Of a stretch of 64,000 nucleotides of DNA, positions 9,752-46,680 are shown piece by piece. The stretch is taken from the NCBI GenBank assembly GCA_963843635.1, contig CAWJLF010000012.1, positions 143,259-207,258 on the forward strand, written 5' to 3'. The stretch's first letter is position 1. Every line of letters begins with the position of its first letter. The position numbers and the translations under genes are program-made. The notes under the pieces were generated by a model. The model made no database searches. It was not told where the DNA came from and was given only the letters and a program-made list of their open reading frames with translations. This DNA comes from an uncultured Bacteroidales bacterium. Lineage in GTDB: Bacteria; Bacteroidota; Bacteroidia; Bacteroidales; VadinHA17.

Positions 9752-10501
9752 ATGAAAATTCTGGTTTGTTTAAGTAATGTTCCCGATACCACTACTAAAA
9801 TCAAATTTGCCGAGGATAATACTTCAGTAGATACGAATGGAGTTCAGTGGGTCATAAACCCGTGGGACGAACTATCGCTGACCCGTGCTCTGGAATTAAA
9901 GGATGATGCAGGCAGTGGTATTAATTCAGTTACAGTTGTGCACGTTGGACCGGCTGCCTCTGAACCTACAATTCGGAAGGCTCTCGCTATTGGAGCCGAT
10001 GATGCTGTCAGGGTCAATTCTGAGTCATCGGATGCAATGTATGTTGCGGCTCAAATTGCGGAAGTTGTCAGAAAGGAGCAGTTTGATATTGTCATGTGTG
10101 GAATAGAATCTAGCGATTATAATGGTTCTGCCGTGGGCGGTATGGTGGCGGAATTCCTGGACATTCCATCTGTCTCAGCTGTTTCGGGTATTCAAATTGA
10201 AGGTGGCAAACCTGTTCTGACCCGTGAGATTGATGGGGGTAAAGAAGTTGTATCGGTTCCGGTGCCTTTCGTGGCGATTGTACAGAAAGGTATTGCAAAG
10301 GAGCCCAGGATAGCGGCTATGCGGGGGATAATGATGGCCAGGTCAAAGCCGGTGAAGCTTATTGAACCGGTTGCTGCAGAAATACTTACTGAAATAGTGG
10401 CCTACGAAAAACCTGCCCCACGTGCAGCTTGCAGGTTTATTGATGCTGAAAATGCAGAACAGCTGATCGATATTTTGCAGAACGAAGCGAAAGTAATCTG
10501 A
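9752..10501 (+). CDS. etfB: electron transfer flavoprotein beta subunit
   Basis: MKILVCLSNVPDTTTKIKF...NPWDELSLTRALELK is typical EtfB. It is followed directly by etfA. Confidence 0.9.
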   Translation: MKILVCLSNVPDTTTKIKFAEDNTSVDTNGVQWVINPWDELSLTRALELKDDAGSGINSVTVVHVGPAASEPTIRKALAIGADDAVRVNSESSDAMYVAAQIAEVVRKEQFDIVMCGIESSDYNGSAVGGMVAEFLDIPSVSAVSGIQIEGGKPVLTREIDGGKEVVSVPVPFVAIVQKGIAKEPRIAAMRGIMMARSKPVKLIEPVAAEILTEIVAYEKPAPRAACRFIDAENAEQLIDILQNEAKVI

Positions 10502-10533
10502 TAATTAGTACAAAAACAGTAAATTTAGAAGTT

Positions 10534-11499: not shown

Positions 11500-11506
11500 C
11501 ACTGTA

Positions 11507-11534
11507 GCAGGGACGTTGCAGGCAACGTCCCTGC
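11507..11534. terminator. perfect 13-bp inverted repeat (GCAGGGACGTTGC-AG-GCAACGTCCCTGC) between etfA and the downstream Fe-S gene
   Basis: Read directly. GC-rich stem with no clear T tract after it (ataaaaac), so it may be an attenuator or processing hairpin rather than a strong terminator. Confidence 0.45.
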
Positions 11535-11561
11535 ATAAAAACAGAATTTAATCAGTCAATC

Positions 11562-12896: not shown

Positions 12897-12925
12897 TAAA
12901 CAGAAGAAAACATATTAAACCGAAT

Positions 12926-13720
12926 ATGGAAACCAGGAAAATTGAAGTACCCGTGATGGCTGATCTCTTTGCGAAGGGAGAGAAGCCTGAATACCTGTTT
13001 TGGGTGGGATGTGCCGGAGCTTTTGATGACAGATACAGGAAAGTTGTAAGAGCATTTACCAAGATACTCACCTACCTGGACATAAATTTTGCAGTTCTCG
13101 GAAAAGAGGAGACCTGCACGGGTGATCCTGCCAGGCGTGCTGGAAACGAGATGCTTTACCAGATGCAGGCTTTGCAGGTAATAGAGATACTGAAGATGTA
13201 TGATGTAAAAAAGATCATTACCATATGTCCCCATTGTTTTAATATTTTCAGGAATGAATATCCCGATCTGGGTGGTCATTACGAGGTGTTTAATTATCTT
13301 CAGTTGCTGGACCGCTATATGGCAGAGGGTAAACTGAAGATCAATCAGGCTTCGTTGCAAGACGTTAAAGTCACCTATCACGATCCATGTTACCTTGGAA
13401 GGGCAAATGACATATATGACGAACCGCGTCATATCATTAAGAGACTTACCGGCAATATGGTTGAGATGCACAGGCATAAGAGCTTCGCGCTCTGTTGTGG
13501 TGCGGGGGGTGGTCAGATGTTTAAGGAGGCTGAGAAGGGTGATAAAGAGGTATTTATTGAAAGAACAGAAGATGCTCTTGAAACTGGTGCCAGTGTTATT
13601 GCAACAGCCTGTCCATTCTGTATGACTATGCTTACTGACGGTTTAAAGTATAAAAACAGGGAGAATGAAATAAAAAATCTTGATATTGCTGAATTAATAG
13701 TCCAATCACTTGATATATAA
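12926..13720 (+). CDS. CCG-domain (HdrD/GlcF-like) Fe-S protein, partner of the preceding membrane module
   Basis: The ORF runs 12848..13720. The preferred start is METRKIEVPVMADLF at 12926. Cys-rich CCG-type motifs: WVGCAGAFD, CTGDPARRAGNE, ICPHC, HDPCYLGR, ALCCGAGGG, ACPFC. Confidence 0.7.
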   Translation: METRKIEVPVMADLFAKGEKPEYLFWVGCAGAFDDRYRKVVRAFTKILTYLDINFAVLGKEETCTGDPARRAGNEMLYQMQALQVIEILKMYDVKKIITICPHCFNIFRNEYPDLGGHYEVFNYLQLLDRYMAEGKLKINQASLQDVKVTYHDPCYLGRANDIYDEPRHIIKRLTGNMVEMHRHKSFALCCGAGGGQMFKEAEKGDKEVFIERTEDALETGASVIATACPFCMTMLTDGLKYKNRENEIKNLDIAELIVQSLDI

Positions 13721-13743
13721 ATCCAATTATTAAACTGACAAAA

Positions 13744-15522
13744 ATGGAAAACAGCAAACTTTTGAAAAGCGGTGAATTTCTTGTAAGCGAAGTTGAATCA
13801 AAAGATGTCTTCATTCCGGAAGAATTTAATGAGGAACAGAAGATGATAGCGCAGACATGCAGTGACTTTCTTGAAGCAGAAGTTTATCCTAATATTGAAC
13901 AGCTGGAAAAAAGTGACAGGGATCTCATGAAGAGTATTCTGAAGAAGTCAGGTGATCTTGGATTAATGGGTGTTTCAATACCTGAGGAATTTGGGGGATT
14001 CGGCCAGTCCTTTGTAACTCAGATGCTTGTGGCTGAGACAACAGGTGCAGGTTATTCTTTTTCAGTGGCATATATGGCGCATTGTGGTATTGGCACTCTC
14101 CCGATAATGTATTATGGGAACAAGGATCAGAGGGACCGGTATGTATCAAAACTGGCAACAGGTGAGATTATTGGTGCTTATTGTCTTACGGAACCTGGTG
14201 CCGGAAGTGATGCCAATTCGGGTAAAACAAATGCCAAATTGAGTGAGGATGGAAAAGATTACATCCTTAACGGGCAGAAAATGTGGATCACCAATGCCGG
14301 ATTTGCCGATTCTCTTGTCGTCTTTGCCAAAATTGACAACGACAGGGTCCTCAGTGCTTTTATAGTTGAAAGCAAATATCCAGGCGTGGTAATTGGCCAG
14401 GATGAACACAAGATGGGTATAAAGGGCTCCTCGACAGCACAGATCTACTTCAATGATGTAAAAGTACCTGTTGAAAACCTTCTTGGTAAGAGAGGCGAGG
14501 GGTTCAGGATAGCACTTAGCATCCTTCATATGGGAAGACTGAAGCTTGGGGCCAACGTGCTGGGTGCTGCAAAAAAAACAATAACAGATACGGTAAGATA
14601 TGCTAATGAAAGGAAGCAGTTTGGAGTACTAATATCAACTTTCGGAGCGCTGAAGTATAAAATGGCTCAGCAGGTTATTCGTCTTTTTGCATCAGAATCA
14701 GCTGTTTACCGGGTAAGCAACGATATTGATAACCTGATGAAAAAGCTCACTGTTGATTGTGGTGACTATGGGAGAGCCTCAATCGAGGCTATAAGTCACT
14801 ATGCTGTTGAAGCAGCTATCCTGAAGGTTGTTGGTTCCGAGATGCTTGATTATGTTGCTGATGAAGCAGTTCAGATACACGGAGGAATGGGTTACTCTGC
14901 TGAAATGTCTGTTGAAAGAGGATACCGTGATTCAAGAATAAACAGGATCTTCGAGGGAACAAATGAGATAAACAGGCTCCTGGTGGTTGATACAGCCATG
15001 AAGCGGGCCATGAAGGGTGAGTTTGACCTCTTTGGAGAGGCTGAGGCCTTATACGACAGCCTGGAGAAGATAAATGACGGGAAGAAAGATGGTGAAAGCT
15101 ATTACGAGGAGAAGAAAAGATATATCAAAAACTTTAAAAAGGTCATTCTGCTTTGTATTCATGGAGCTTCCAAACGCTTTGAGAAAAGCCTTATTTACGA
15201 GCAGGAAGTATTGAATAATATAGCGGAAATGATGATGGAAACCTATGTTTCCGAGTCACTGGCGCTGAGGGTTGAGAAGCTGGAATCCTTAAAAGGGAAT
15301 GCATCACTTTACAGGGATATGCTTGATGTCAACCTTTTTGATACTGCCGATATTGTCAGAAAATCTGCTTTTGAGGCGGTCGGTTCATTCTCAGAACCTG
15401 AGATATGCGGTTCGCTGACCGGAGCAGTTGAAGATCTGACAAGGGTTAATTGTATAAATGTGAAAGATGCCAGGCGCAGGATAGCTGACAGGCTTATTGA
15501 AGATAACATGTACAAATTCTGA
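13744..15522 (+). CDS. acyl-CoA dehydrogenase, long form with C-terminal extension
   Basis: 592 aa. Motifs: GAYCLTEPGAGSDA, WITNAG, QIHGGMGY, EGTNEINR. Confidence 0.9.
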   Translation: MENSKLLKSGEFLVSEVESKDVFIPEEFNEEQKMIAQTCSDFLEAEVYPNIEQLEKSDRDLMKSILKKSGDLGLMGVSIPEEFGGFGQSFVTQMLVAETTGAGYSFSVAYMAHCGIGTLPIMYYGNKDQRDRYVSKLATGEIIGAYCLTEPGAGSDANSGKTNAKLSEDGKDYILNGQKMWITNAGFADSLVVFAKIDNDRVLSAFIVESKYPGVVIGQDEHKMGIKGSSTAQIYFNDVKVPVENLLGKRGEGFRIALSILHMGRLKLGANVLGAAKKTITDTVRYANERKQFGVLISTFGALKYKMAQQVIRLFASESAVYRVSNDIDNLMKKLTVDCGDYGRASIEAISHYAVEAAILKVVGSEMLDYVADEAVQIHGGMGYSAEMSVERGYRDSRINRIFEGTNEINRLLVVDTAMKRAMKGEFDLFGEAEALYDSLEKINDGKKDGESYYEEKKRYIKNFKKVILLCIHGASKRFEKSLIYEQEVLNNIAEMMMETYVSESLALRVEKLESLKGNASLYRDMLDVNLFDTADIVRKSAFEAVGSFSEPEICGSLTGAVEDLTRVNCINVKDARRRIADRLIEDNMYKF

Positions 15523-16292: not shown

Positions 16293-16306
16293 ATGATATA
16301 GATCAA
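16293..16306. promoter_or_regulatory. FNR/CRP-type box candidate (aTGAT-ATAG-ATCAA) upstream of the cytochrome operon
   Basis: 9/10 match to TTGAT-N4-ATCAA read directly. It lies about 90 nt upstream of the TATATTTG box. Confidence 0.3.
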
Positions 16307-16382: not shown

Positions 16383-16390
16383 TATATTTG
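16383..16390 (+). promoter_or_regulatory. Bacteroidota-type -7 promoter box for the cytochrome operon
   Basis: TATATTTG. It overlaps the GTG that the ORF track uses as a start, which argues for a downstream ATG start. Confidence 0.35.
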
Positions 16391-16434
16391 TGAATAAATT
16401 AACAATAATTTTTAATATGAATCAGAAATTTAAT

Positions 16435-16794
16435 ATGAAAAGACAGATTTTGGTTGCACTGGCCATGGTTGCCATTATGATCGGAATATCTTCATGTGAA
16501 AAGTACTCTTTTTTGCCACCGGTCATTAACCCGGTTGACACTATCCATTTTGCAACAGATATCCAGCCAATCTTTAATGCAAATTGTATAACATGTCATG
16601 GCAGTCTCAGGGCACCTGATCTCAGAGAAGGGAAATCGTATGAAGCACTTACCAAAGGTGGTTTTGTTGATCAGCCAGGTGAGACAAGCTTACTCTATAC
16701 ACAGATGAACAAATCGGATCATGTTCCAAGGTCAACAGATGCCGATAAACAAAAAGTACTCATCTGGATAAACCAGGGAGCCCTTGATAATTAA
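16435..16794 (+). CDS. monohaem c-type cytochrome lipoprotein with a Planctomycete-cytochrome-C (PSCyt1)-like domain
   Basis: Lipobox MKRQILVALAMVAIMIGISSC. Also IQPIFNANCITCHG ... LIWINQGA, the PSCyt1-like pattern with a single CxxCH. Confidence 0.65.
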   Translation: MKRQILVALAMVAIMIGISSCEKYSFLPPVINPVDTIHFATDIQPIFNANCITCHGSLRAPDLREGKSYEALTKGGFVDQPGETSLLYTQMNKSDHVPRSTDADKQKVLIWINQGALDN

Positions 16795-16825
16795 CTAATA
16801 ACATAACCCGATAATACATATTGAC

Positions 16826-17686
16826 ATGAAAAAGCTCTTAATACTATTGACATTATCTTTCTTTCTTTCTTCTCTGTCAGCACAGGATACTCAGACAAAG
16901 GAAGAGTCCACTCCTGTACGCTTTACCTTTGGAACGAACATGCTCATCGATAATCAGACAGTTGAATCTCCCTATAAAGGTGGATTACAACTTCAGATTC
17001 AGCACAGGTTCAGCCTTATTGAGAACTACCATAACCTTTATGGTATATATGGTTCAGCTAATACGAGGCTTGCTCTGACTTATGGTATTACAGACAAGCT
17101 GATGGTTGGTGTCGGAACAACAAAAGATTACCAGATGCAGGATATAGAGTGGAAATACAGGATCCTCAGTCAGACTGAAGATGGTAAGATGCCTGTTTCA
17201 CTTTCCTACTTCGGGAATGTAGTAGCGGACCTCAGGACAAGTGAAGCCTTCGGCCCTGAACAAAGTTTTAGGAATATTCACAGGTTCTCATATTTTACAC
17301 AGTTGATTCTTGCCCGTAAATTCTCAGAAAAAATATCAGCTCAGATTGCTCCATCGGTTATATATTTCAACTCTGTGCCAAGATACAGTGATACCCAGGG
17401 ATATAAAAACGTGAACTTCGGTATATCAGCCGGGGCACGCGCCAACCTGTTTGGCAACCATTCACTTATACTTGAGTATGATCAGCTTCTTTCAAAACAG
17501 GATCTTGATGTTCAGCCAAAACCCAACCTGGCTTTTGGATGGGAGATCAATACAGCAACTCATACCTTCCAGATTTTTGCAGCCAATTATAACCAGATCA
17601 TCAGCCAGAGGAATCTTGTATTCAATACGAATGATTTCACAAAAGGAGGTTACCTGTTGGGTTTTAATATAACTGTAAGGTTTTAA
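16826..17686 (+). CDS. outer-membrane beta-barrel protein (DUF5777-like)
   Basis: Signal peptide ending SLSAQ, alternating-hydrophobicity strands, C-terminal ...GFNITVRF with a terminal Phe. The DUF5777 assignment is from memory of the family. Confidence 0.6.
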   Translation: MKKLLILLTLSFFLSSLSAQDTQTKEESTPVRFTFGTNMLIDNQTVESPYKGGLQLQIQHRFSLIENYHNLYGIYGSANTRLALTYGITDKLMVGVGTTKDYQMQDIEWKYRILSQTEDGKMPVSLSYFGNVVADLRTSEAFGPEQSFRNIHRFSYFTQLILARKFSEKISAQIAPSVIYFNSVPRYSDTQGYKNVNFGISAGARANLFGNHSLILEYDQLLSKQDLDVQPKPNLAFGWEINTATHTFQIFAANYNQIISQRNLVFNTNDFTKGGYLLGFNITVRF

Positions 17687-17706: not shown

Positions 17707-18714
17707 ATGAATTTTTATAAGTTCAGGATCATTACCCTGTTCGCATTAGCATCATTGAGTTCGTTTGCATTTGCAAGCCCGTTTGATTTTGGAAACCAGG
17801 AAAACAAGATTCAGGATACGACTTCCTTTGTTTCCCCTTTTGCAGAAGATAACGAGAGGTGCTTCAAATGCCACGGTCAGTCATTATACGAATACACTAA
17901 TGAGACTCTAGGACGGCAGGTGCGGGATATTATGTGTTCTGAAAGGATTGTCAACAGGGAGGAGTTCTACAGGTCAAATCATAAAAGCTTCAGCTGTACT
18001 GACTGTCATTCTGAGGAATATACAACATTTCCTCATCCTGGTGAACTGAGGATGGAACAGATGTATAATTGTATCGATTGTCATGGAGGGGATGAGAGGT
18101 TCGCTAAATACCATTTTGAGGAGATTGAGACTGAGTACCAGCAGAGCGTTCACTATAAACTGGAAAAGGATGGATTTTCATGCTGGAAATGTCATAATCC
18201 GCATACTTACAGGATCAGCGTCAGGACATCAGAGAACCTCAGAGAGACCATTGCATATGATAATGCAATATGCCTTAACTGTCATTCCAACTTCAATAAT
18301 TTTCAGTTGCTGACAGACAGGAAAGAGATCAATATCATTCAGAAGCATGACTGGCTTCCAAACCAGACAGCACATTTTGCCAATGTACGATGTATTGAGT
18401 GTCATACCCAGATTAACAGTGAAGTTCCTGTTGCTCATCTTATTAAACCAAAGGAAGAGGCAGTACGTCTTTGCAATGAGTGTCATTCCCGGAATTCTAT
18501 CCTGATGGCTTCACTCTACAAATTTGAATCGAAGGAGAGTCGTCGAAATGGTTTTTTCAATGGTATTATTCTTAATGAATCATATGTTATCGGCGCAAAC
18601 CGGAATGAATATCTTAACCTTCTGAGCCAGTTTTTATTCATTGCCGTACTGGGCATCATTCTCATTCATATCATATTCAGGATCAGAAAAAGTAAAACTT
18701 ATAAAGGAGATTGA
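17707..18714 (+). CDS. heptahaem c-type cytochrome with signal peptide and C-terminal TM anchor
   Basis: Seven CxxCH sites: CFKCH, CTDCH, CIDCH, CWKCH, CLNCH, CIECH, CNECH. C-terminal helix LSQFLFIAVLGIILIHIIFRI. Confidence 0.85.
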   Translation: MNFYKFRIITLFALASLSSFAFASPFDFGNQENKIQDTTSFVSPFAEDNERCFKCHGQSLYEYTNETLGRQVRDIMCSERIVNREEFYRSNHKSFSCTDCHSEEYTTFPHPGELRMEQMYNCIDCHGGDERFAKYHFEEIETEYQQSVHYKLEKDGFSCWKCHNPHTYRISVRTSENLRETIAYDNAICLNCHSNFNNFQLLTDRKEINIIQKHDWLPNQTAHFANVRCIECHTQINSEVPVAHLIKPKEEAVRLCNECHSRNSILMASLYKFESKESRRNGFFNGIILNESYVIGANRNEYLNLLSQFLFIAVLGIILIHIIFRIRKSKTYKGD

Positions 18715-18715
18715 A

Positions 18716-19327
18716 ATGTATCTTTACCCTAAATGGATAAGGCTCTGGCATCTTATTAACGCTGTATTGTTCATTATTCTGATTATTACCGGATTAAGTA
18801 TGCAATATACCGGGAAAGACAATCCTGCCTATATGGTCGGTTTTGCCAAAGCTGTGAAATGGCATAATTTTGCTGCCGTTCTGTTGATTATCAATTATAT
18901 AATATTTGTCACCGGTAACATATTTACCAGTAATGGAAGACACTATAAAGCGGATAAGAAGAGCTTTACAGCAGATATCATCAGGCAGCTGAAATATTAT
19001 TCTTTCGGTATGTTCAGAGGAGAAAAAAAGCCCTTTGAGATAACTGAAACCAATAAGTTCAATCCGCTGCAAAAGTTCAGCTATCTTCTTGCAATGTATA
19101 TTGCTCTTCCTTTGCTGATTATATCTGGTATAGGCTTGCTGCTTCCTGAGATCACCATAAATCGCTTTCTGGGTGTGAGTGGACTGATTTACACAGATAT
19201 TCTTCATATAACTATGGGTTTCTTTTTATCGATCTTCATGCTGATCCATATTTATACATGCACGCTTGGAGCTAAACCAACTTCATTGTTCTGGGGTATG
19301 ATTACCGGTTATCACCGGTCCGAATAA
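18716..19327 (+). CDS. di-haem b-type cytochrome membrane subunit (FdnI/HydC/PhsC-like)
   Basis: The ATG lies 1 nt after the upstream stop codon. Four TM-embedded His residues (WHLINAV, KWHNFAA, ILHITMG, LIHIYT) and 4-5 TM helices. Confidence 0.7.
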   Translation: MYLYPKWIRLWHLINAVLFIILIITGLSMQYTGKDNPAYMVGFAKAVKWHNFAAVLLIINYIIFVTGNIFTSNGRHYKADKKSFTADIIRQLKYYSFGMFRGEKKPFEITETNKFNPLQKFSYLLAMYIALPLLIISGIGLLLPEITINRFLGVSGLIYTDILHITMGFFLSIFMLIHIYTCTLGAKPTSLFWGMITGYHRSE

Positions 19328-19346: not shown

Positions 19347-20309
19347 ATGAAAGAGATGGAAGAAAATGAAGGTAAACGATCATCGAGACGCAATTTCATC
19401 AAGAAAGTCGGAGTAGGTGTTGGAGCTGTCTCTATTGCCGGCGTTGCCGGAACATCAGTAATAGGAAAAAACAATTTAAAGTCAGGCGAAAAGGTCCGCT
19501 TGCTTTCTACTGATGGCAAACTGGTTGAGGTGGACAAGGATGATATCCAGCCTGCCGGAGATGTTGTAGCTGAATTAAAGGAGGAAGCAAGAGTCGGTCT
19601 GCCAAACAGAAAATTTGTTATGGTAATTGACCTGGCGAAGTGCAAGAATGCCAGAAAATGTGTTGAGGCATGCCAGGAAGGCCACCTTCTGCCGAAGGAC
19701 CACGAGTGGATGAAGATATTTCTTCTCCAGGATGATCATGATACTACAAAGTACTGGTTTCCCCGGCCATGTTTCCATTGTGATAAACCAATGTGCGTTA
19801 GTGTTTGTCCCGTGGGCGCCACATATAAGAGAGATGATGGTATTGTGCTGATTGACAACCAGAGATGTATAGGATGTAAATTTTGTATGACCGGCTGCCC
19901 GTACTCCGTAAGAGTTTTTAACTGGGATGATCCTAAGGTTGAAGTACCGGAAGGCTATGAATACGATCCGGAAAAGGCAATCCCGCAGGTTGAGGGTACA
20001 GTGGGAAAATGTATATTCTGTGCTGATAAGCTTCGTATGGGTGAATTGCCGCGATGCGTCTCCGCATGCCCTATGGGAGTACTGTATTTTGGTGATATCC
20101 TTGAAGATACTGTTACTAACGGAGAAGAGACTGTCAGGTTCAGCAAGCTGATGAATGACAGGGCAGGATATCGTTACCGTGAAGACCTGGGAACCCTGCC
20201 AAGCGTATTTTATCTCCCCCCTGTTCAACGTCTGTTTCCTGTTGAAAGAGGAATGGAGGATCTTCCTGACTCACTTAAACTGAGGTATAAAGATGCCGGC
20301 CCCAGGTAA
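19347..20309 (+). CDS. Tat-exported Fe-S cluster subunit (NrfC/PsrB/HybA-like)
   Basis: Twin-arginine motif SRRNFIKKVG. Cluster motifs: CKNARKCVEAC (CxxAxxCxxxC, second Cys replaced), CFHCDKPMCVSVCP, CIGCKFCMTGCP, CIFC...CVSACP. Confidence 0.85.
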   Translation: MKEMEENEGKRSSRRNFIKKVGVGVGAVSIAGVAGTSVIGKNNLKSGEKVRLLSTDGKLVEVDKDDIQPAGDVVAELKEEARVGLPNRKFVMVIDLAKCKNARKCVEACQEGHLLPKDHEWMKIFLLQDDHDTTKYWFPRPCFHCDKPMCVSVCPVGATYKRDDGIVLIDNQRCIGCKFCMTGCPYSVRVFNWDDPKVEVPEGYEYDPEKAIPQVEGTVGKCIFCADKLRMGELPRCVSACPMGVLYFGDILEDTVTNGEETVRFSKLMNDRAGYRYREDLGTLPSVFYLPPVQRLFPVERGMEDLPDSLKLRYKDAGPR

Positions 20310-20331: not shown

Positions 20332-21639
20332 ATGATGACTGAGAAGAAATTGCTTGAGGATTTGACTCCCGAGATTGAATCTACCACATTAAGATGGTAC
20401 CTTACATTTGCCGCATTCTTTATAGTCTTCTGCTTAGGCATCTATGGTTTGATCCAGCAGATTGACAAGGGACATATTGTTACAGGGATGCGAGATAATG
20501 TCGTTTGGGGTCTTTATATTGTCAACTTCATATTCTTTATGGGTTTGAGTTATGCCGGAGCCCTTTTATCAGGAGTGCTTCATCTTTTCCATACGGGTTG
20601 GCGAAAGCCTGTAATAAGGCTTGCAGAACTCATAACTGTTATCTCACTTGTGATAGGACCCTTCTTTATCTTTTTCTGTATAGGCCGCCTCGACAGATTG
20701 CCATTTCTCATATTACACCCCCGTATTCAGTCCCCGATTACTTGGGACGTCATTGCAATCAGCACAGACCTAGTCGGATGTTTTATGTATCTGTATCTGT
20801 CATTCATTGAGGATTTTGCAATTCTTCGCGATTACCAGGAACTCAATGTTCCTCAGTGGAAACGCAATGTCTACAGGGTATTGTCCCTTGGTTTTACCGG
20901 AACCGAAACACAGAAAAAGATATTAAAAAGAGCAAAAAATGTAATGGCATCTATGATTATTGCCATCGCTATCATTGTATATTCTGTTTTGGCCTGGATA
21001 TTCGGTGTTACACTTCAACCGGGATGGCATTCAACTATTTTCGGTCCATACTTTGTTATTGCAGCTGTATTCTCGGGAACTGGCTTACTCATTATACTGA
21101 TGTTCATATTCAGAAAGGTATATCACCTGGAAGAATATATTACAAAACGCCATTTTGTTAATGTAGGGGTACTGCTGACAATTATCGCTGCATTCTATGG
21201 ATATTTCACCTTCAGTGACTACCTGACAAAATGGTATGGATCAATAAAGATGGATTCACTCCTTATTGACAAGCTTTTTTCAGATTATTATTCCCTGTTT
21301 ATATTTGCTAACTATGTGGGTATTCTTATACCATGTGTTATAATAGCGTTCCCGAGATTCAGGAACATAAGGAGTATTACCATTGCTGCCGTGATAGCAG
21401 TGACAGCCCTGTGGGTAAACCGCTATATAATTGTGATCCCTACTCTTGAGACTCCATTTCTTCCCATTCAGGATACACGACCTGACTGGATACAGTATTC
21501 CCCGACATGGGTGGAATGGTCACTTACATTTGCAGGACTTGCTGTTTATGGAATGTTGTTCATGCTGGTCTCCAAGATAGCTCCAATTATCTCTATTTCG
21601 GAGATGAAAGAACAGGATAAGGTTGAGATATTGAAGTAA
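20332..21639 (+). CDS. NrfD/PsrC-family polytopic quinol-interacting membrane subunit
   Basis: 435 aa, about 10 TM helices, immediately downstream of the NrfC-like gene. WGLYIVNFIFFMGLSYAGALLS is a typical NrfD-type helix. Confidence 0.8.
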   Translation: MMTEKKLLEDLTPEIESTTLRWYLTFAAFFIVFCLGIYGLIQQIDKGHIVTGMRDNVVWGLYIVNFIFFMGLSYAGALLSGVLHLFHTGWRKPVIRLAELITVISLVIGPFFIFFCIGRLDRLPFLILHPRIQSPITWDVIAISTDLVGCFMYLYLSFIEDFAILRDYQELNVPQWKRNVYRVLSLGFTGTETQKKILKRAKNVMASMIIAIAIIVYSVLAWIFGVTLQPGWHSTIFGPYFVIAAVFSGTGLLIILMFIFRKVYHLEEYITKRHFVNVGVLLTIIAAFYGYFTFSDYLTKWYGSIKMDSLLIDKLFSDYYSLFIFANYVGILIPCVIIAFPRFRNIRSITIAAVIAVTALWVNRYIIVIPTLETPFLPIQDTRPDWIQYSPTWVEWSLTFAGLAVYGMLFMLVSKIAPIISISEMKEQDKVEILK

Positions 21640-21653
21640 AGCAGAAAGTTATT

Positions 21654-22544
21654 ATGAAAAAAATTATCACAGGCACCCTGATCATACTGGCATTACTGAC
21701 TATTGCTTCAACGGACTCATATTCGCAGGAAGCAGAAATGATAAGTCCGTATATACAGCTGCAATATTTCAAGAATACCAATGACAGTTCATCCTTAAAG
21801 ACAGCTCTTACTTACTCTGTGAACCGGATGGAGCTCCCTATAAAGGACATGAAGATCCTGTTTTATGCCGGAGTAGGAGGGGACAGGAAGCAGATCGGAG
21901 AAGCAGTCACCAACGATAAGGGTGTGGCCATTCTTCATCTTAGTGACAGGTCTGATTTTATTGAAGATGAAACAGGTCAGTGGGCTTTCAGCACTGAATA
22001 TGCGGGTAATGATACAATAGAATCAGCCTCAGCTGATCTTTTGATTCAGAATATAGAAATAGCCATGGAGCTGACAGAGCCGGATAGCATTAAAACAGTT
22101 GCCCTTACCGTTATGAAGGTGACAGATGGGAAAAGAGTACCTGCTGCCGGGGAAATGCTGACAGTTTATGTTCCCCGAATGTTCAGCTTCCTTCCGATTG
22201 GTGATGTTATACTTGACGATGCAGGATACGGATCACTTGAGTTTCCTGCGGACCTTCCGGGTGACAAAGATGGTAACCTGACAATAATTGCCAGGTTTGA
22301 CGAGCACCCGGAATTCGGGAATGTTGAGAAGGAGGCCACTTTAAAATGGGGAGTCCCATCATCTTATTCGATTCCTAAGGGACACAGGGCATTATGGACT
22401 AAAGTAGCTCCCCTGTGGATGATATATACCCTGTCCATCCTTCTGACTGGTGTATGGGGTCATTATATGTTTGCTTTGATAAGCCTTATCAGAATAAAGA
22501 GAGATGCCAAAAAGAATGAATCCGGAGATCTACGGACAAGGTGA
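21654..22544 (+). CDS. hypothetical exported protein with C-terminal TM anchor (operon member, function unknown)
   Basis: Signal peptide MKKIITGTLIILALLTIAS and C-terminal helix LWMIYTLSILLTGVWGHYMFALISLI. No motif I recognise. Confidence 0.5.
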   Translation: MKKIITGTLIILALLTIASTDSYSQEAEMISPYIQLQYFKNTNDSSSLKTALTYSVNRMELPIKDMKILFYAGVGGDRKQIGEAVTNDKGVAILHLSDRSDFIEDETGQWAFSTEYAGNDTIESASADLLIQNIEIAMELTEPDSIKTVALTVMKVTDGKRVPAAGEMLTVYVPRMFSFLPIGDVILDDAGYGSLEFPADLPGDKDGNLTIIARFDEHPEFGNVEKEATLKWGVPSSYSIPKGHRALWTKVAPLWMIYTLSILLTGVWGHYMFALISLIRIKRDAKKNESGDLRTR

Positions 22545-22600: not shown

Positions 22601-22996
22601 ATGAAAAAAATGAAATTACTTTTATTTAGCTCGGCTCTGCTATTAATGAGCGCATCAATGTCTGCACAGACAAAACCCTGGGTGGTACCCGCGAACTTTA
22701 AATCAATGAAGAACCCAATTGCTATGAGTGATGCCAGTAAAAAAGCAGGCATGACTCTCTATACCAGGAACTGTGCATCCTGCCATGGAAAGGCCGGACT
22801 GGGTGATGGTGTAAAAGCCAGGATGCTGAAAGACTTCCCTGGTGATTTTTCAAAGGCTGATTTTCAGAATCAGACTGACGGTGAACATTTTTATAAGACA
22901 AAGACCGGAAGAGGTGAAATGCCTAAGTATGAAGGTAAGTTATCCGATAATGACATCTGGAACATTGTAAATTATATGAGATCCTTCAAAAAATAG
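22601..22996 (+). CDS. class I monohaem cytochrome c
   Basis: Signal peptide, CASCHG haem site, distal GEMPKY Met ligand motif, 131 aa. Confidence 0.85.
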   Translation: MKKMKLLLFSSALLLMSASMSAQTKPWVVPANFKSMKNPIAMSDASKKAGMTLYTRNCASCHGKAGLGDGVKARMLKDFPGDFSKADFQNQTDGEHFYKTKTGRGEMPKYEGKLSDNDIWNIVNYMRSFKK

Positions 22997-23016: not shown

Positions 23017-23051
23017 AAAAAAGGGACATGCATCAGCATGTCCCTTTTTTG
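23017..23051. terminator. bidirectional rho-independent terminator between convergent cytochrome genes
   Basis: A7-GGGACATGC-atca-GCATGTCCC-T6 hairpin read directly. Confidence 0.7.
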
Positions 23052-23065
23052 TATCTGTTATTCTT

Positions 23066-24127
23066 TTATTTTACTACTGGTGGTGTATAACCCAGTCCAG
23101 TCATTGTAGCGATAGAATTATCAAGAAGAGTGTTTATGTATCCGGGGTTGTGGACACCCAGGCTCTTGTCCTGAGCAACTGCATCATAATCGAGGTAGGC
23201 CAGAACTACATTTGCTTTGAATGTACCTGCTGCTGCGAGGTCCGTAGCCACATCGTATATTCCAGCTGCAATAAGCTGAGCCTTAAGAGTTCCAAGCTTG
23301 GCAGTAACCTCGGTCTGAAGCGCCTCATAGTCAGGAACAGTTGGGTGGCAGGTCATGCAACCTGTGGTATTTATTTCTTCAGCACCGTGTACCATATAAG
23401 TCATACCCATGTTATGTCCACCAGCCTGGTAGCCATAAGGAGTTGCCAGGTGGCAAGTGATACAACCATTATCTCCAAAATGAGAATTGCTTGTCGGATA
23501 GGCTTCCCCGGGAAGTTCAAAAGGAATTTTACCAAGCAGGAAATTGGCCATTGGAGCATGATGTACACCTATACGTGAATCGTCACTGGTAATCACAAAA
23601 TCATCTCCGTCAAGTACAGGTGCCGGCGATACGTCGCGTGCCTGGTGGCATCCCACGCACTGGTTACTGTTACCGTTATCATAAGTAACAGATGCACCTG
23701 CATATTTGAGGATCAGAGTTTCTGCCCCGGGCTTGGTAAGAGCCCAGTCATCAGTGGTGAATGTGGTATGAATCTGATGACATGTGTAGCAGTTGATCTG
23801 CATAGGATCAGAAGGAACGGATATATCAGCATCTGAACCCTCTGCAACATACTCCAGGAAACCCTGGCTGGTATGGCAGCGAACACAACCTTTACGGTTG
23901 GCATAAGCAGCATTTACACCTGTGGCATGAACAGACTCACTCCACTGTGCTTGTTTTGTTTCAATTAAAGCGCTGTTGTCATGACATGTGGTACATGTTG
24001 CATTTGCATCGATACCATTAGCGCCATCTTGCCCATCTTGACCAGCAGGACCAGCAGGACCTTCACAGGACACAAGAATAAATCCAGCTGCAAACAAGGC
24101 AGAAAGTAGTTTAATCAGGTTTTTCAT
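23066..24127 (-). CDS. hexahaem c-type cytochrome lipoprotein with a collagen-like G-X-Y linker
   Basis: Lipobox FILVSC, then EGPAGPAGQDGQDGANG. Six CxxCH sites: CTTCH, CVRCH, CYTCH, CVGCH, CITCH, CMTCH. Confidence 0.85.
   Translation of the reverse strand: MKNLIKLLSALFAAGFILVSCEGPAGPAGQDGQDGANGIDANATCTTCHDNSALIETKQAQWSESVHATGVNAAYANRKGCVRCHTSQGFLEYVAEGSDADISVPSDPMQINCYTCHQIHTTFTTDDWALTKPGAETLILKYAGASVTYDNGNSNQCVGCHQARDVSPAPVLDGDDFVITSDDSRIGVHHAPMANFLLGKIPFELPGEAYPTSNSHFGDNGCITCHLATPYGYQAGGHNMGMTYMVHGAEEINTTGCMTCHPTVPDYEALQTEVTAKLGTLKAQLIAAGIYDVATDLAAAGTFKANVVLAYLDYDAVAQDKSLGVHNPGYINTLLDNSIATMTGLGYTPPVVK
24024..24059. repeat. two pairs of tandem 9-bp repeats encoding the G-X-Y linker
   Basis: ccatcttgc-ccatcttga-ccagcagga-ccagcagga on the + strand, encoding GPAGPAGQDGQDG on the - strand. 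Confidence 0.8.
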
Positions 24128-24240: not shown

Positions 24241-24254
24241 TTGATAAATGTCAA
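24241..24254. promoter_or_regulatory. FNR/CRP-type box candidate TTGAT-AAAT-GTCAA in the divergent cytochrome/regulator intergenic region
   Basis: 9/10 match to TTGAT-N4-ATCAA. Its centre is about 40 nt upstream of the start site predicted from the TATTTTTG box at 24274. Confidence 0.35.
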
Positions 24255-24331: not shown

Positions 24332-25027
24332 ATGTCAGATAAAAATTTAAAAGAAAATTACGAAAACTGCACGAAAACATGGAAGAATTTTAAATACCTG
24401 ACAGGGGATGAGCTTCATATGATTGATGAAAACAGGTATGAAGCAACATTCAAACCCGGTGAAATAATATTGAAGCAGGGATCTCCTACTTCCAATGCTT
24501 TATTTCTTACTGATGGAATGGCAAAGACATATATTGAAGGCAATAATGGCAGGAACTTCATCATGGGAATAGCATTGCCCGGGCAATTGATAATTGGCCC
24601 TGGCGCTTATGTAAATTCGAGGCATACATATTCTGTAGCTGCCATTACTACTGTACAGGCCTGTTTTATCAACTTCGACATATTCAGACGGCTGTTAAAA
24701 ATAAACGGGAACTTTGCCGAAAGCCTGATGGAAGATATTAGTATCAATTCAATGAGATCGCATACCAGGATGGTGAACCTTGCTCAAAAGAAAATGCCGG
24801 GAAGACTGGCTGAAGCTATACTCTATTTTTCTGATGAGATCTTCAAATCTGATGAATTTGAAGTGATACTTTCGAGGCAAGAATTGGGAGAGATGACCAA
24901 TATGGCAAAGGAATGTGTTGTCAGAATTCTCAGGGAACTTGAGGAATTGGGAGTTATTCGTTCCGATTCATCAAAAATAAAAATAGTGGACAAAAAGAAA
25001 CTAGTTCAGATATCAGAAAAAGGCTGA
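24332..25027 (+). CDS. Crp/Fnr family transcriptional regulator (no N-terminal FNR Cys cluster)
   Basis: cNMP-binding-like beta-roll (FKPGEIILKQGSPTSNALFLTDGMAK) and C-terminal HTH SRQELGEMTNMAKECVVRILRELEELGVI. Only one Cys in the N-terminal 30 aa. Confidence 0.85.
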   Translation: MSDKNLKENYENCTKTWKNFKYLTGDELHMIDENRYEATFKPGEIILKQGSPTSNALFLTDGMAKTYIEGNNGRNFIMGIALPGQLIIGPGAYVNSRHTYSVAAITTVQACFINFDIFRRLLKINGNFAESLMEDISINSMRSHTRMVNLAQKKMPGRLAEAILYFSDEIFKSDEFEVILSRQELGEMTNMAKECVVRILRELEELGVIRSDSSKIKIVDKKKLVQISEKG

Positions 25028-25097
25028 CGGAGCAGGAAGGAAAGTGTATGGGTTTCCTGCTTCCTTTTATTATATTAAAACAAAATCTATAATTATT

Positions 25098-28000
25098 ATG
25101 AAACATTTGAAGTTTCTCATCTCTCCTGTTTTCATGGGAGTATTGTTTGTAATATTTGCCGTATCGATGGCAGTTGCAACGTTTATTGAAAATGACTTTG
25201 GCTCATCAGCTGCATATAATATGGTATATAACACCAGGTGGTTCGAATTAATACTCCTGCTCCTGGTTGTCAACCTTATTGGACAGCTGATAGTTTTTAA
25301 GCTGTTTAAGAAAACCAGGCTGACTGGTGCCCTTTTCCATCTGTCATTCGTCGTAATGATATTAGGTGCAGGGATAACACGGTATTTCGGGTGGGAAGGA
25401 ACCATCCACATCAGAGAAGGAGAAGTGCAGGACAAATGTTTTTCGACCGACAAGTACATTGGATATTCAATAAAGGATCAAAATGGGAATCTAGTGGCTC
25501 AGGATATGGAAAAGTATTCAATGACCTCTGTTTCAGCAGAAAACTATGAAAAAAACATAAGCCTTAATAACAATAACTATCAGCTTGTTCTTTCCAAAAT
25601 ACTTCCAAATGCTTCCGAAGTCATTTCAGAAAATCCGGAAGGCACTCCTGTAGTTTCACTGGTCCTCACAAAAGACATGATTACCCAGGATAACCTGATA
25701 ATAAAAAAAGGAGAAAGTAAGTCATTTGACGGAGTGTCATTCAGCTTTGACCCTGCCATATCAGCTGACATAAATATTTCATACGATTCAGCCGGGTTTT
25801 ATCTCAGTTCAGGTACTGAAATAGGAGAGATGGGAATGGGATCCCATGATATCATAAAAGTTGCTCCAGGGGAAAGGGTGGAGATGTCGAAAATGCAGGT
25901 ATTTACCATAAATGACCTTAAGATTATTCCACAGACATTAAATGCATCGGGAATGGTAACTGCTGTTGCGGTCAATCCGGCTCAGCGTAATACAGGTCTG
26001 AATGCCTTTATTTTTCACGTTTATGGCAATGATAAATCGGAGACCCTTTATTTGTGGGATCGCAATTCTGAAAAGGTAGCGACAGACAGTTGTGTGGTTG
26101 ACGGTTATAAAATTGCGCTTAGTTATGGTTCTAAGATCACAACTCTTCCTTTTTCGATTAAGCTGAATGATTTCATTATCGACAGGTACCCCGGCTCAAA
26201 CAGCCCATCGGGCTATAAGAGTGATGTGACACTTATCGACAGTAAGGCAGGCATTGAAAAACCCTTTATGATCTTTATGAATAATATTCTTAAATACAAA
26301 GGTTATCGTTTTTATCAGTCCTCTTTTGATCGCGATGAGCAGGGTACCATTTTGTCTGTCAATCATGACAGGGCAGGTATGTTAGTAACCTATACAGGTT
26401 ATGCATTGCTGTTTTTCTTTATCATTCTTTCCCTGATAAACAGGAATTCTGTTTTCTATAAGGTAAATGCTGGTTACTGGCAGTCAAACCTGAGAAAGGT
26501 AATCCCATCGCTGATCATCATCTTCTTTCTTTCGGGTCTTTCTTCGGTGAATGCTCAAAAGCTGGTTCCCGGGAAAGATGTTTCGACAGAATTCGGGAAG
26601 GTGCTTGTACAGGATCAGAAGGGAAGGACCAAACCTCTGTTTACTCTCAGTAATGATATCCTGCGCAAGGTAACCAGGAAGAATGAGTTTGACGGATTAA
26701 CCTCCATGCAGGTATTCATGGGTATTTTCCTTGATTTCGACCACTGGAAGGATGTACCTCTCATCACTGTTTCAAATAAAGACCTCCGTAAGAAGATAGG
26801 AATAAGTGGAAAATATGCAGCCTTTTCAGACCTGGTTGATCTTGGAGGGAACGGTAACTATAAGATATCCGCGGATGTCAACAGCGCCTATTCAAAGGCA
26901 CCCGGCGAAAGGACAAAGATGGATAAGGAGGTGATGAAGGTCGATGAAAGACTGAACATCATATACATGATATATAAAGGTGATTTCCTGAAACTGTTCC
27001 CTCTCAAGAATGGAACTCATGACTGGGGTTCTCCTGAAGAAGCTCTCAAAGGGGCAGTAAGCAAGGAAGATTCAGTATACCTAAGCAATATTATCCCGGT
27101 ACTGTCTAATGCCATGACCACCAATAATATTGCTGATACAAGAAAGATTACCGAATCAATAAGCGGATACCAGGAAAGATTTGCACAGTATGATCTTCCT
27201 TCAACCTTTAAAACGAAAGCCGAATTATTATATTACAGGCTTGGCATCTTTGAAAAGCTATTCCCCTTTTATGCCACTGTCGGACTCATTATGCTTATTA
27301 GCCTGATAACAATGGTTATCAGAGGTAAAAATAAAAAATCTCTATTTATCAGGTTGTTGGGATGGCTGTTGTTTGGCGGCTTTCTTTTCCATACTTTTGG
27401 TTTGGTCCTCAGGTGGTATATTGCCGGTCACTCACCGATGAGCAACGGGTATGAATCAATGATTTTTATTTCCTGGGTTACTCTTCTTGCCGGGTTTATC
27501 TTCAGCAGAAAATCGCCTTTTGCACTTTCTGCAACTGCAGTGCTCGGGTCCATGACCCTCATGGTTGCACATCTCAGTTTTATGGACCCTGAGATTACCA
27601 ACCTTGTGCCTGTATTAAAATCATACTGGCTTACTTTGCACGTTTCAGTTATAACAGGTAGTTATGGGTTTCTGGGATTAGGAGCCATTCTGGGACTGAT
27701 AACACTCATACTGCTGACCTTGTCAAATAATAGGAACCGTGAAAGGATATCTGTAACCATTGATGAATTAACAGTAATTAATTATAAGACCCTTACACTG
27801 GGACTGTATTTTCTGACGATCGGTACTTTTCTCGGTGCTGTATGGGCAAATGAATCATGGGGCAGGTACTGGGGATGGGATCCAAAAGAGACATGGTCGC
27901 TTATTACAATAATTGTATACAGTATTGTGATACACTCACGACTCATACCAGGTATGAAAGATGTATATTCTTTTAACCTCCTGTCACTCGTTGCTTTCTT

Positions 28001-28184
28001 TTCAGTATTAATGACCTATTTCGGTGTAAATTACTACCTGTCGGGACTGCATTCCTACGCGGCAGGGGATCCTATACCTATTCCTTCATTTGTATATATA
28101 ACGATTATTGTGCTGTCATTACTCTCGCTGGTGGCCTATCTTAAATATACAAAATGGAAAAAACCTGAAGCAGGTATTAAATAA
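25098..28184 (+). CDS. ccsBA: fused system II cytochrome c biogenesis protein (ResB/CcsB plus CcsA haem lyase)
   Basis: N-terminal ResB-like region (preferred start MKHLKFLISPVFMGVLF). C-terminal CcsA with the WWD motif WGRYWGWDPKETWS and conserved His-containing helices. Confidence 0.85.
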   Translation: MKHLKFLISPVFMGVLFVIFAVSMAVATFIENDFGSSAAYNMVYNTRWFELILLLLVVNLIGQLIVFKLFKKTRLTGALFHLSFVVMILGAGITRYFGWEGTIHIREGEVQDKCFSTDKYIGYSIKDQNGNLVAQDMEKYSMTSVSAENYEKNISLNNNNYQLVLSKILPNASEVISENPEGTPVVSLVLTKDMITQDNLIIKKGESKSFDGVSFSFDPAISADINISYDSAGFYLSSGTEIGEMGMGSHDIIKVAPGERVEMSKMQVFTINDLKIIPQTLNASGMVTAVAVNPAQRNTGLNAFIFHVYGNDKSETLYLWDRNSEKVATDSCVVDGYKIALSYGSKITTLPFSIKLNDFIIDRYPGSNSPSGYKSDVTLIDSKAGIEKPFMIFMNNILKYKGYRFYQSSFDRDEQGTILSVNHDRAGMLVTYTGYALLFFFIILSLINRNSVFYKVNAGYWQSNLRKVIPSLIIIFFLSGLSSVNAQKLVPGKDVSTEFGKVLVQDQKGRTKPLFTLSNDILRKVTRKNEFDGLTSMQVFMGIFLDFDHWKDVPLITVSNKDLRKKIGISGKYAAFSDLVDLGGNGNYKISADVNSAYSKAPGERTKMDKEVMKVDERLNIIYMIYKGDFLKLFPLKNGTHDWGSPEEALKGAVSKEDSVYLSNIIPVLSNAMTTNNIADTRKITESISGYQERFAQYDLPSTFKTKAELLYYRLGIFEKLFPFYATVGLIMLISLITMVIRGKNKKSLFIRLLGWLLFGGFLFHTFGLVLRWYIAGHSPMSNGYESMIFISWVTLLAGFIFSRKSPFALSATAVLGSMTLMVAHLSFMDPEITNLVPVLKSYWLTLHVSVITGSYGFLGLGAILGLITLILLTLSNNRNRERISVTIDELTVINYKTLTLGLYFLTIGTFLGAVWANESWGRYWGWDPKETWSLITIIVYSIVIHSRLIPGMKDVYSFNLLSLVAFFSVLMTYFGVNYYLSGLHSYAAGDPIPIPSFVYITIIVLSLLSLVAYLKYTKWKKPEAGIK

Positions 28185-28248: not shown

Positions 28249-28323
28249 GGTGGAAGATGGGGCTCGAACCCACGACCTTCGGAACCACAATCCGACGTTC
28301 TAACCGACTGAACTACATCCACC
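28249..28323 (-). tRNA. tRNA-His (anticodon GTG)
   Basis: Hand-folded cloverleaf. Acceptor GTGGATG/CTTCCAC has one U-U mismatch. D arm GTTC-AGTCGGTTA-GAAC. Anticodon stem TCGGA/TCCGA with loop TTGTGGT. T arm GTGGG-TTCGAGC-CCCAT. An extra 5' G(-1) lies opposite discriminator C, as in bacterial tRNA-His. CCA is not encoded. Confidence 0.9.
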
Positions 28324-46669: not shown

Positions 46670-46680
46670 GAGGTTAAAAT

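Follow-up and report, generated by a model that had tools for sequence, protein, structure and literature searches.

A 64,000-nucleotide stretch of contig CAWJLF010000012.1 from an uncultured Bacteroidales bacterium, analysed here over its full length and referred to as the window, carries on its minus strand a gene for a predicted lipoprotein with six haem-binding motifs, in which the lipid-modified cysteine and the first haem are joined by a short collagen-like tract of Gly-X-Y (G-X-Y) triplets. An initial annotation had described this protein as a hexahaem lipoprotein on a collagen-like N-terminal tether, and the lipobox (LVSC), the six CxxCH motifs (at residues 45, 81, 113, 157, 222, and 257) and the uninterrupted G-X-Y tract all agree with that description. 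The tract had been counted as five triplets; the run is indeed uninterrupted and collagen-like, but it comprises six triplets (GPA GPA GQD GQD GAN GID), which follow Cys21-Glu22 and are separated from the first haem Cys by the four residues ANAT. In a six-frame scan of the window, this tract was the sole run of at least five G-X-Y triplets. An AlphaFold2 model of the protein, built without haems, has a mean predicted local distance difference test score (pLDDT) of 76, with residues 18-70 below 50, which limits the fold comparisons reported below; the C-terminal region, previously described as helical in appearance, is modeled as three helices (residues 265-287, 305-320, and 328-344) with pLDDT above 90. 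Eight His residues outside the haem motifs (H67, H120, H189, H190, H216, H238, H247, and H326) are invariant in an alignment of 64 homologues (A1), and those at 189 and 190 belong to a segment, R185-x-G-x-H189-H190, that may contribute to a distal pocket or provide axial ligands. The gene is convergent to the upstream operon and divergent from a Crp/Fnr-family gene, as had been annotated, with a terminator hairpin at the convergent end (Table 1).

Table 1. Features of the hexahaem lipoprotein gene and of the surrounding cytochrome locus, with positions in the window
Feature	Position	Strand	Basis or remark
Hexahaem lipoprotein open reading frame	23066..24127	minus	353 amino acids, ATG start
Signal peptide MKNLIKLLSALFAAGFILVS, residues 1-20, lipobox L-V-S before Cys21	24068..24127	minus	sequence reading; SC|EGP or SC|TKEGP conserved in 237 of 244 homologues
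Cys21, predicted lipid-modified, +1 of mature lipoprotein	24065..24067	minus	C21 column invariant in alignment A1
Collagen-like (G-X-Y)6 tract GPAGPAGQDGQDGANGID, residues 23-40	24008..24061	minus	both 9-bp arrays lie within
Haem motif 1 CTTCH, residues 45-49	23981..23995	minus	additional N-terminal haem relative to NrfA
Haem motif 2 CVRCH, residues 81-85	23873..23887	minus	motif spacing
Haem motif 3 CYTCHQIH, residues 113-120	23777..23791	minus	
Haem motif 4 CVGCHQ, residues 157-162	23645..23659	minus	
R185-x-G-x-H189-H190 segment, haem 4 to haem 5	23558..23575	minus	invariant columns in A1
Haem motif 5 CITCH, residues 222-226	23450..23464	minus	corresponds to NrfA haem 4, H216 ahead to NrfA H275; hhalign and PDB-sequence profile search
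Haem motif 6 CMTCH, residues 257-261	23345..23359	minus	corresponds to NrfA haem 5, H238 to NrfA H301; hhalign and PDB-sequence profile search
C-terminal three-helix module with invariant S-x-G-x-H326-N-P	23096..23335	minus	AlphaFold2; aligns to octahaem nitrite reductase helices including 'GFHNP'
Bidirectional intrinsic-terminator hairpin between convergent hexahaem gene and last gene of operon	23017..23050	.	
FNR-type palindrome TTGACATTTATCAA, divergent Crp/Fnr-hexahaem intergenic region	24241..24254	.	127 nucleotides upstream of hexahaem ATG
Second FNR-type box ATGATATAGATCAA, upstream of operon	16293..16306	.	
Small monohaem lipoprotein, lipobox ISSC, one CxxCH	16390..16794	plus	motif scan
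DUF5777 outer-membrane beta-barrel protein	16826..17686	plus	PF19089, E 1.7e-68
Heptahaem c-type cytochrome, CbcA-like, C-terminal transmembrane helix	17707..18714	plus	seven CxxCH
Dihaem cytochrome b, thiosulfate-reductase PhsC-like, CbcB-like	18641..19327	plus	PF01292; NF011582 179.9 bits, below cut-off 204
NrfC/DsrO-like 4Fe-4S protein	19347..20309	plus	optional module
NrfD/DsrP-like membrane subunit	20332..21639	plus	optional module
296-amino-acid protein, no Pfam or NCBIfam family	21654..22544	plus	co-occurs with NrfCD-like pair
Monohaem class I cytochrome c, signal peptide, predicted soluble periplasmic carrier	22601..22996	plus	
Crp/Fnr-family regulator, cNMP-binding domain and HTH_Crp_2	24332..25027	plus	adjacent and divergent in nearly all loci
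ResB-CcsA fusion, system II cytochrome c maturation	25044..28184	plus	

The tract is a property of a large protein family. A word-indexed homology search returned 593 relatives, nearly all of them 340-370 amino acids long and from Bacteroidales metagenome bins, which carry database names such as 'hypothetical', 'cytochrome c3 family', and 'collagen-like protein'; an exhaustive search with a profile recovered 2266 clusters (at 50% identity) at E<=1e-3, and 385 at E<=1e-30. An uninterrupted G-X-Y run of 2-16 triplets (median 7) is present in 237 of the 244 homologues that bear a lipobox and absent from the other 7. In these lipobox-bearing proteins, the run starts one residue past the Cys (C-E|G-P) in 179 and after C-T-K-E in 22, and it ends 1-4 residues before the first haem Cys, occupying the whole tether between Cys and haem 1. 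Over the 1634 triplets in the 237 proteins, Pro accounts for 35% of X and Asp for 30% of Y positions, and conservation along the tract is highest over its opening residues, C-E-G-P-(M/A)-G-P. Some genomes additionally encode a hexahaem paralogue in tandem (at 11190-12311 in L002/L014, and in L015 and L050), a 373-amino-acid protein with ~29% identity; because these paralogues retain an identical S-C-E-G-P-A-G-P-A-G start, the N-terminal motif is better conserved than the haem domain.

With regard to the DNA that encodes the tract, the initial annotation had drawn attention to tandem 9-bp repeats as a substrate for slippage that could vary tether length. Tandem Repeats Finder does report two adjoining arrays of 9-bp units, one at 24024-24044 (2.3 copies, 91% matches, score 35) and one at 24040-24061 (2.4 copies, 100% matches, score 44), but with copy numbers this low and both scores below the default threshold of 50, the arrays are real but minimal. 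The repeated QDG QDG provides no evidence of recent duplication, since a single substitution separates it from the QNG QDG of the nearest relatives. Variation in tether length was found across the family, where indels consist of whole triplets in every case, but close relatives hardly differ in length: the four members of the window protein's own cluster at >=90% identity have tracts of equal length that differ by D/N substitutions only, and a one-triplet length variant is present in 2 of 8 clusters at that identity. Triplet indels thus appear to occur on evolutionary rather than population time scales. Because 46 of the 69 distinct tracts contain no adjacent near-identical 9-bp units at the DNA level, the periodicity points to a constraint on the protein, and the presence of Gly at every third position appears to be upheld by selection on the protein, not by ongoing slippage. 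These findings leave little room for slippage as a present source of variation, and they bear equally on a contingency locus, i.e., slippage-prone repeats that switch tether length at high frequency within populations. Such a locus could account for the adjoining arrays, for the differences in tract length between species, and for the one-triplet changes in the two clusters, yet its simple-sequence hallmarks are lacking in the ~2.3 copies per unit and in the length-invariant four-member cluster, most tracts are free of repeats, and in-frame units make on/off switching impossible; we consider it highly improbable and have rejected it. In a separate cluster of near-identical proteins (P0118), one KGD triplet has been lost and one APG triplet gained elsewhere with the tether still at 30 residues, a compensated change that suggests selection on tether length.

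The haem domain, for which the initial annotation could name no similarity, was placed by profile and structure comparisons rather than by the sequence of the window protein on its own. Searched singly, the protein had no meaningful match among PDB sequences (best E 0.31, antibody light chains) and no PF02335 match at E<=1, and a scan against Pfam and NCBIfam yielded generic multihaem matches only, those to NCBIfam far below threshold; the MtrC/OmcA thresholds were not reached (PF22113, 29.1 bits vs a cut-off of 30; TIGR03507, 24.8 bits vs 209.3). A profile of the family, by contrast, matched Shewanella NrfA and two octahaem nitrite reductases (ONRs) among PDB sequences with E values of 2e-4 to 9e-4, over a region that spans haems 5-6 and the C-terminal helices including S-x-G-x-H-N-P. 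An hhalign comparison of A1 with E. coli NrfA paired H216, C222, H238, and C257 with H275, C282, H301, and C314, respectively (probability 80%, E 1.4e-5), and five homologues marginally pass PF02335 (24.2-28.2 bits vs a cut-off of 24.1) at profile positions 235-372 of 438. The structural homology search that had been proposed was run with Foldseek on the model without haems, and gave as best match the undecahaem S-layer cytochrome OmhA of Carboxydothermus ferrireducens (6qvm_A; E 3.8e-4, probability 1.00, 326 aligned columns), followed by octahaem nitrite reductases and NrfA; the query TM-score of the OmhA match was just 0.42 and the root-mean-square deviation 8.1 A, for a model with a pLDDT of 76 and a disordered N-terminus, so that the score is a modest one.

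On the combined strength of fold match, profile search, PF02335, and hhalign, we conclude that the hexahaem domain is a pruned member of the NrfA/ONR/HAO/OcwA/OmhA superfamily, for which a framework including 'three C-terminal oligomerisation-forming helices' has been published (PMC9250108). Its C-terminal half contains the counterparts of NrfA haems 4 and 5 followed by the three-helix module of the NrfA/ONR/OcwA/OmhA multihaem proteins. The spacing of haem motifs 2-6 (32/44/65/35) resembles that of NrfA motifs 1-5 (38/49/73/32), and the domain is best described as a probable NrfA-like five-haem core, with haems 2-6 equivalent to NrfA haems 1-5 and CxxCH throughout, plus an extra N-terminal haem. 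The N-terminal haems were matched to NrfA by motif spacing alone; a local mapping of the three N-terminal haems with HMMER was dropped as contradictory, haem 1 having corresponded once to the CxxCK haem and once to NrfA haem 2. By colinearity, with no significant alignment, haem 2 would be the positional counterpart of the catalytic haem 1 of NrfA, with His in place of Lys. The N-terminal half does not align significantly with NrfA, and for the catalytic Arg/Tyr/His triad and Ca2+ site at an open-coordination haem the window protein offers R185, H189, and H190 as invariant candidates.

Comparison with characterized proteins sets the window protein apart from NrfA proper, from OcwA/OmhA, and from MtrC. 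It shares with NrfA and the octahaem nitrite reductases (PF02335; 3ubr, 8rv0, 3sxq/3ttb) the last two haem motifs, two distal His, and C-terminal helices with G-x-H-N-P, and the gene also has genomic partners that resemble NrfB, NrfC, and NrfD; unlike NrfA, the window protein has six CxxCH motifs and no CxxCK, lacks the N-terminal 120 residues of NrfA, and carries an extra N-terminal haem, a lipid anchor, and a collagen-like tract, and with a sub-threshold score it falls outside NrfA proper. Because some NrfA variants have CxxCH (PMC9250108), lack of CxxCK alone does not exclude catalysis. OmhA (6qvm) and OcwA of Gram-positive metal reducers, clade 3 of PMC9250108, likewise belong to the superfamily, have CxxCH at all haems, and are attached to the envelope by a non-haem device, which is an S-layer binding domain there and a lipid plus stalk here; the invariant His-His pair also recalls, by description and unaligned, the His pairs at the open-coordination haems of OcwA/OmhA (PMC9250108). 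These proteins differ in having nine or eleven haems, two of them penta-coordinated, in place of six, and by this count the window protein falls outside OcwA/OmhA; it is a lipoprotein in a diderm host, and there is no significant sequence match to accompany the TM-score of 0.42. With MtrC/OmcA and the Geobacter OmcB-type porin-cytochrome conduits, the locus has in common a lipoprotein multihaem cytochrome linked to a barrel, a periplasm-side cytochrome, and an inner-membrane quinol oxidase; similarity to PF22113 is weak, and, unlike in MtrC/OmcA, the cytochrome is not decahaem, has an NrfA-type fold, and its periplasm-side partner is monohaem, so that by membership it falls outside MtrC as well. 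Among the relatives are five giant proteins (P0127, P0207, P0229, P0234, and P0249) of 720-1950 amino acids with 13-24 haems, in which the hexahaem module is combined with PKD, Ig-like, CARDB, and MtrC/MtrF-like domains; P0127 and P0229 retain the N-terminal lipobox and collagen-like tract.

That the hexahaem gene is part of a cytochrome island, as had been assumed, is confirmed by synteny. The same gene order recurs in ~60 Bacteroidales loci from metagenome-assembled genomes (MAGs), all of which keep the hexahaem gene, the cytochrome c, the cytochrome b, the heptahaem cytochrome, and DUF5777. The 4Fe-4S protein, the NrfD-like subunit, and the 296-amino-acid protein form an optional cassette whose members are present or absent together, and which is missing from roughly half of the syntenic loci. 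In locus L063, all genes lie in a single co-directional operon that starts with the hexahaem gene and continues with the small lipoprotein cytochrome, DUF5777, cytochrome c, the heptahaem cytochrome, cytochrome b, the FeS protein, NrfD, and the 296-amino-acid protein; in L073 and L080, the genes for the small lipoprotein cytochrome and DUF5777 come right after it. The hexahaem gene thus stands directly ahead of this pair in three distant loci. The monohaem lipoprotein (120-140 amino acids) is itself always found immediately upstream of DUF5777 (16390-17686 in the window, 1110-2453 in L063, 4055-5307 in L080, and also in L073); with a combined size close to that of fused monohaem-porin proteins like Cyc2, the pair may represent a split cytochrome-porin.

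The gene pair at 17707-19327 conforms to the published description of CbcBA, in that a seven-haem c-type cytochrome with a C-terminal transmembrane helix is encoded next to a PhsC-like ('thiosulfate reductase-like') dihaem cytochrome b. As in Geobacter CbcBA, with which it was compared by description only, the helix contains a His (…FIAVLGIILIHIIF…); the regulators differ, being of the Crp/Fnr type here and the sigma-54-dependent BccR there. Clusters homologous to Geobacter CbcBA have been reported in Bacteroidetes and proposed as markers of extracellular electron transfer (bioRxiv 10.1101/2021.04.15.440034). Translation of the cytochrome b gene probably begins further downstream than the listed TTG, which would make this gene overlap the heptahaem gene.

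An FNR-type box is found at both promoters, and the case for the two boxes was made on the conservation of their position across loci. In 55 of 66 related loci, TTGAT-N4-ATCAA, with at most one mismatch, precedes the hexahaem start codon by ~127 nucleotides, and in 19 of 49, (G/A)TGAT-N4-ATCAA occurs at a fixed distance upstream of the operon that begins with the small lipoprotein cytochrome and DUF5777. A window-wide excess of such boxes was rejected as an argument, as 4 sites were found vs 7 expected by chance. The two boxes suggest one regulon under the adjacent Crp/Fnr-family protein, in which the hexahaem gene would probably be co-regulated with the CbcBA-like module. The regulator has three Cys only (C13, C111, and C195) and is without the N-terminal four-Cys cluster of E. 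coli FNR; the box conforms to the FNR consensus, but the regulator probably does not sense its signal via a [4Fe-4S] cluster.

As to the conformation of the tether, we infer that the tract is a stiff, length-defined stalk of polyproline-II or collagen type rather than a floppy linker; at ~0.29 nm per residue, its length can be estimated as ~5 nm here and 2-14 nm across the family. The stalk could be triple-helical if the haem head trimerises via its C-terminal helices, which form dimers, trimers, or hexamers in the superfamily, depending on the member (PMC9250108). Uninterrupted G-X-Y repetition, the defining feature of collagen triple-helix repeat proteins (PF01391), extends over the six triplets of the window protein. 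A triple helix has several points against it, namely that the score against the Pfam Collagen model is 13 bits vs a cut-off of 27.2, that six triplets are insufficient for a free-standing collagen helix and would need a trimeric head, and that NrfA is a dimer. A tract without any collagen-like structure, i.e., a merely flexible low-complexity linker or a sorting motif in which lipoprotein processing or sorting depends on the C-E-G-P start alone and the periodicity is a relic of triplet duplication, would fit that sub-threshold score, the shortness of the tract (two or three triplets in many orthologues, none in seven), the low pLDDT of the region, and the peak of conservation at its start. Such a reading is harder to reconcile with the 1634 triplets that make up the scored runs without interruption, with indels that always are multiples of three residues, and with a Gly that stays constant while X and Y vary freely, in tracts two-thirds of which lack an explanatory DNA repeat; we regard it as unlikely, if worth keeping in mind. 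The composition, with Pro in X and polar or charged residues in Y, is moreover typical of collagen-like segments from bacteria and phages. Bacterial collagen-like surface proteins (Scl1/2, BclA, Lcl, and Bucl8) and phage fibre segments share with the window protein the strict G-X-Y register and, in the surface proteins, a tract that adjoins a globular head and an anchoring device; they differ in that the surface proteins have tens to hundreds of triplets vs the 2-16 found here, and in that the window tract directly follows the lipidated Cys and bears a multihaem cytochrome as its head.

The side of the membrane on which this stalked protein would be displayed can be argued in both directions. 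The initial annotation had read the acidic residue at +2 as compatible with surface export. The lipoprotein export signal (LES) of Bacteroidota, as defined by experiment, requires a pair of adjacent acidic residues at ~+3/+4, preceded by Lys or a polar residue, in forms such as C-X-K-(D/E)2-X, Q-A-(D/E)2, and C-S-(D/E)2 after the lipid Cys (PMC5080379, PMC6222051), and the C-E-G-P-A start does not conform to this two-residue rule; the +2 Glu was therefore rejected as an export signal. The C-T-K-E-G-P variant of 22 relatives has a single acidic residue and does not conform either. What does point to the outer face is an orthologue (P0190), encoded in a triad of hexahaem protein, small cytochrome, and DUF5777, which carries CSKDENEDES, a canonical LES, instead of the G-X-Y tract, together with the fusions to PKD and Ig-type domains, the fold match to a surface cytochrome (OmhA), and the invariably linked outer-membrane barrel, which in sum make this location plausible. 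Domains of the PKD, Ig-like, CARDB, and MtrC/MtrF-like types are characteristic of proteins outside the cell, and bacterial collagen-like regions are, to our knowledge, extracellular. Weighing against the outer face are the lack of an LES in the window protein (C-E-G-P-A-G) and in almost all Bacteroidales orthologues (C-E-G-P-x), the lack in the window of any evident system that would secrete a folded haem protein, the periplasmic nature of the enzymes closest in sequence (NrfA and octahaem nitrite reductases), and a gene set that mirrors NrfABCD (reductase, multihaem carrier, FeS protein, and NrfD). The barrel adds to these points: the DUF5777 protein, of ~280 amino acids, was modeled by AlphaFold2 from homologues that are all >=71% identical (pLDDT 49), with ~12-13 predicted strands by a rough count vs 26 in MtrB, and a barrel of this size is probably too small to sheath a multihaem protein as MtrB does. 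Overall, we lean slightly towards a hexahaem protein on the outer face of the outer membrane, serving extracellular acceptors, with the evidence close to balanced.

The protein could instead face the periplasm, with the stalk setting its height there, and receive electrons from the CbcBA-like and NrfCD-like quinol oxidases in order to reduce a soluble acceptor (nitrite, hydroxylamine, NO, or a sulfur oxyanion, for example) admitted by the DUF5777 channel, or only to bridge to the outer-membrane unit. Besides the missing LES, the periplasmic relatives, and the parallel with E. coli nrfABCD, this arrangement would suit the colinearity of haems 2-6 with NrfA haems 1-5 and an FNR-type box, which is typical of anaerobic respiratory reductases. 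A catalytic haem with open coordination would also be conceivable, given the invariant R185-x-G-x-H-H segment and the eight invariant His outside the motifs of the six haems. It fits less well with the lack of a CxxCK motif, with the confinement of similarity to the C-terminal half and the failure to reach PF02335, and with the roughly half of loci that are without the NrfCD-like pair yet keep the barrel; the orthologue with a canonical LES and the PKD/Ig fusions also speak against it, and we know of no collagen-like regions in periplasmic proteins. A clear match to a characterized periplasmic enzyme family, which would have undermined the outward-facing proposal of the initial annotation, was approached only marginally, by NrfA at E ~1e-4 over the C-terminal half. 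The periplasmic alternative accordingly deserves serious attention as a possibility, though we think it rather improbable.

Under the favoured reading of a membrane-tethered, stalked cytochrome, signal peptidase II would cleave the precursor, and the acylated Cys21 would anchor the protein in the membrane leaflet, followed by one Glu and a (G-X-Y)6 stalk that spans the full distance to the first haem. The hexahaem protein would then be the distal cytochrome of a conserved respiratory module under an FNR-type box. Menaquinol would be oxidised by the CbcBA-like pair of heptahaem cytochrome and dihaem cytochrome b and, in this genome, also by the NrfCD-like pair, and electrons would pass through the small monohaem cytochromes and the outer-membrane unit (DUF5777 barrel and monohaem lipoprotein) to the hexahaem protein, which may act in the module as its terminal reductase or distal unit of electron output. 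From there they would reach a final acceptor, which on the outer face could be minerals, humics, or partner cells. A bolder version, which we consider speculative and improbable, would make the protein the founding example of a very large unnamed family in which a lipid-anchored collagen triple helix holds a trimeric 18-haem 'lollipop' at a distance of 3-14 nm from the outer membrane, which together with the split Cyc2-like unit of monohaem protein and small barrel would form a new outer-membrane electron conduit, with the C-E-G-P-x-G-P start doubling as a surface-sorting or trimer-nucleation signal of a kind not recognised before. If this were true, fermentative, beta-oxidising Bacteroidales would discharge menaquinol electrons to minerals, humics, or syntrophic partners.

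What is new here is the strongly conserved and unusual tether; the multihaem lipoprotein that carries it belongs to a known superfamily, NrfA/OcwA, and to a known type of module, that of CbcBA. A literature search found no description of the hexahaem family, of any collagen-stalked cytochrome, or of a collagen-like segment joined with a multihaem cytochrome, nor was a precedent found in the literature for a redox protein tethered solely by such a segment. With its strict register and discrete length classes, the tract would be a 'molecular ruler' for the distance between membrane and haem, which is relevant to electron-transfer rates. The haem domain would add a six-haem, all-CxxCH, lipid-anchored branch to the NrfA/OcwA superfamily and bears on the 'grafting and pruning' view of multihaem cytochrome evolution. 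Bacteroidales, which abound in sediments, soils, and digesters, are generally regarded as fermenters. A widespread syntenic module that is apparently redox-regulated, has its own barrel, and lies beside genes for electron transfer flavoprotein (ETF) and acyl-CoA dehydrogenase would give them a respiratory outlet for beta-oxidation electrons, and it would offer a marker of extracellular or interspecies electron transfer outside Proteobacteria and Desulfobacterota. A Bacteroidetes cluster of cytochrome and barrel genes that was enriched on an anode (PMC8258643) may be related.

Several further observations concern the surroundings of the module. Genes for EtfB, EtfA, an FeS protein, a CCG-domain protein, and an acyl-CoA dehydrogenase (9752-15522) lie directly upstream of the cytochrome operon, and this block stays adjacent in most related loci; the adjacency hints at beta-oxidation electrons that feed a menaquinone pool drained by the cytochrome module. 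The ResB-CcsA fusion is a single open reading frame of 1046 amino acids and is kept beside the regulator in nearly all loci. A wide taxonomic spread of the family, as contigs binned 'Geobacter sp.' (L045) and 'Actinomycetota' (L074) might indicate, was rejected, as both are short MAG contigs; L045 (1.8 kb) is 56-57% identical to Bacteroidales proteins and likely reflects mis-binning. Elsewhere in the window are genes for oxygen defence or micro-oxic respiration, namely those for a flavodiiron-type protein (metallo-beta-lactamase-like plus flavodoxin; 41371-42594) and for cytochrome bd oxidase subunits I and II (45113-47811), in a genome that otherwise looks like that of an anaerobe. A tRNA gene (28249-28322, minus strand), located just downstream of ResB-CcsA, is the sole Rfam match at the gathering threshold in the window.

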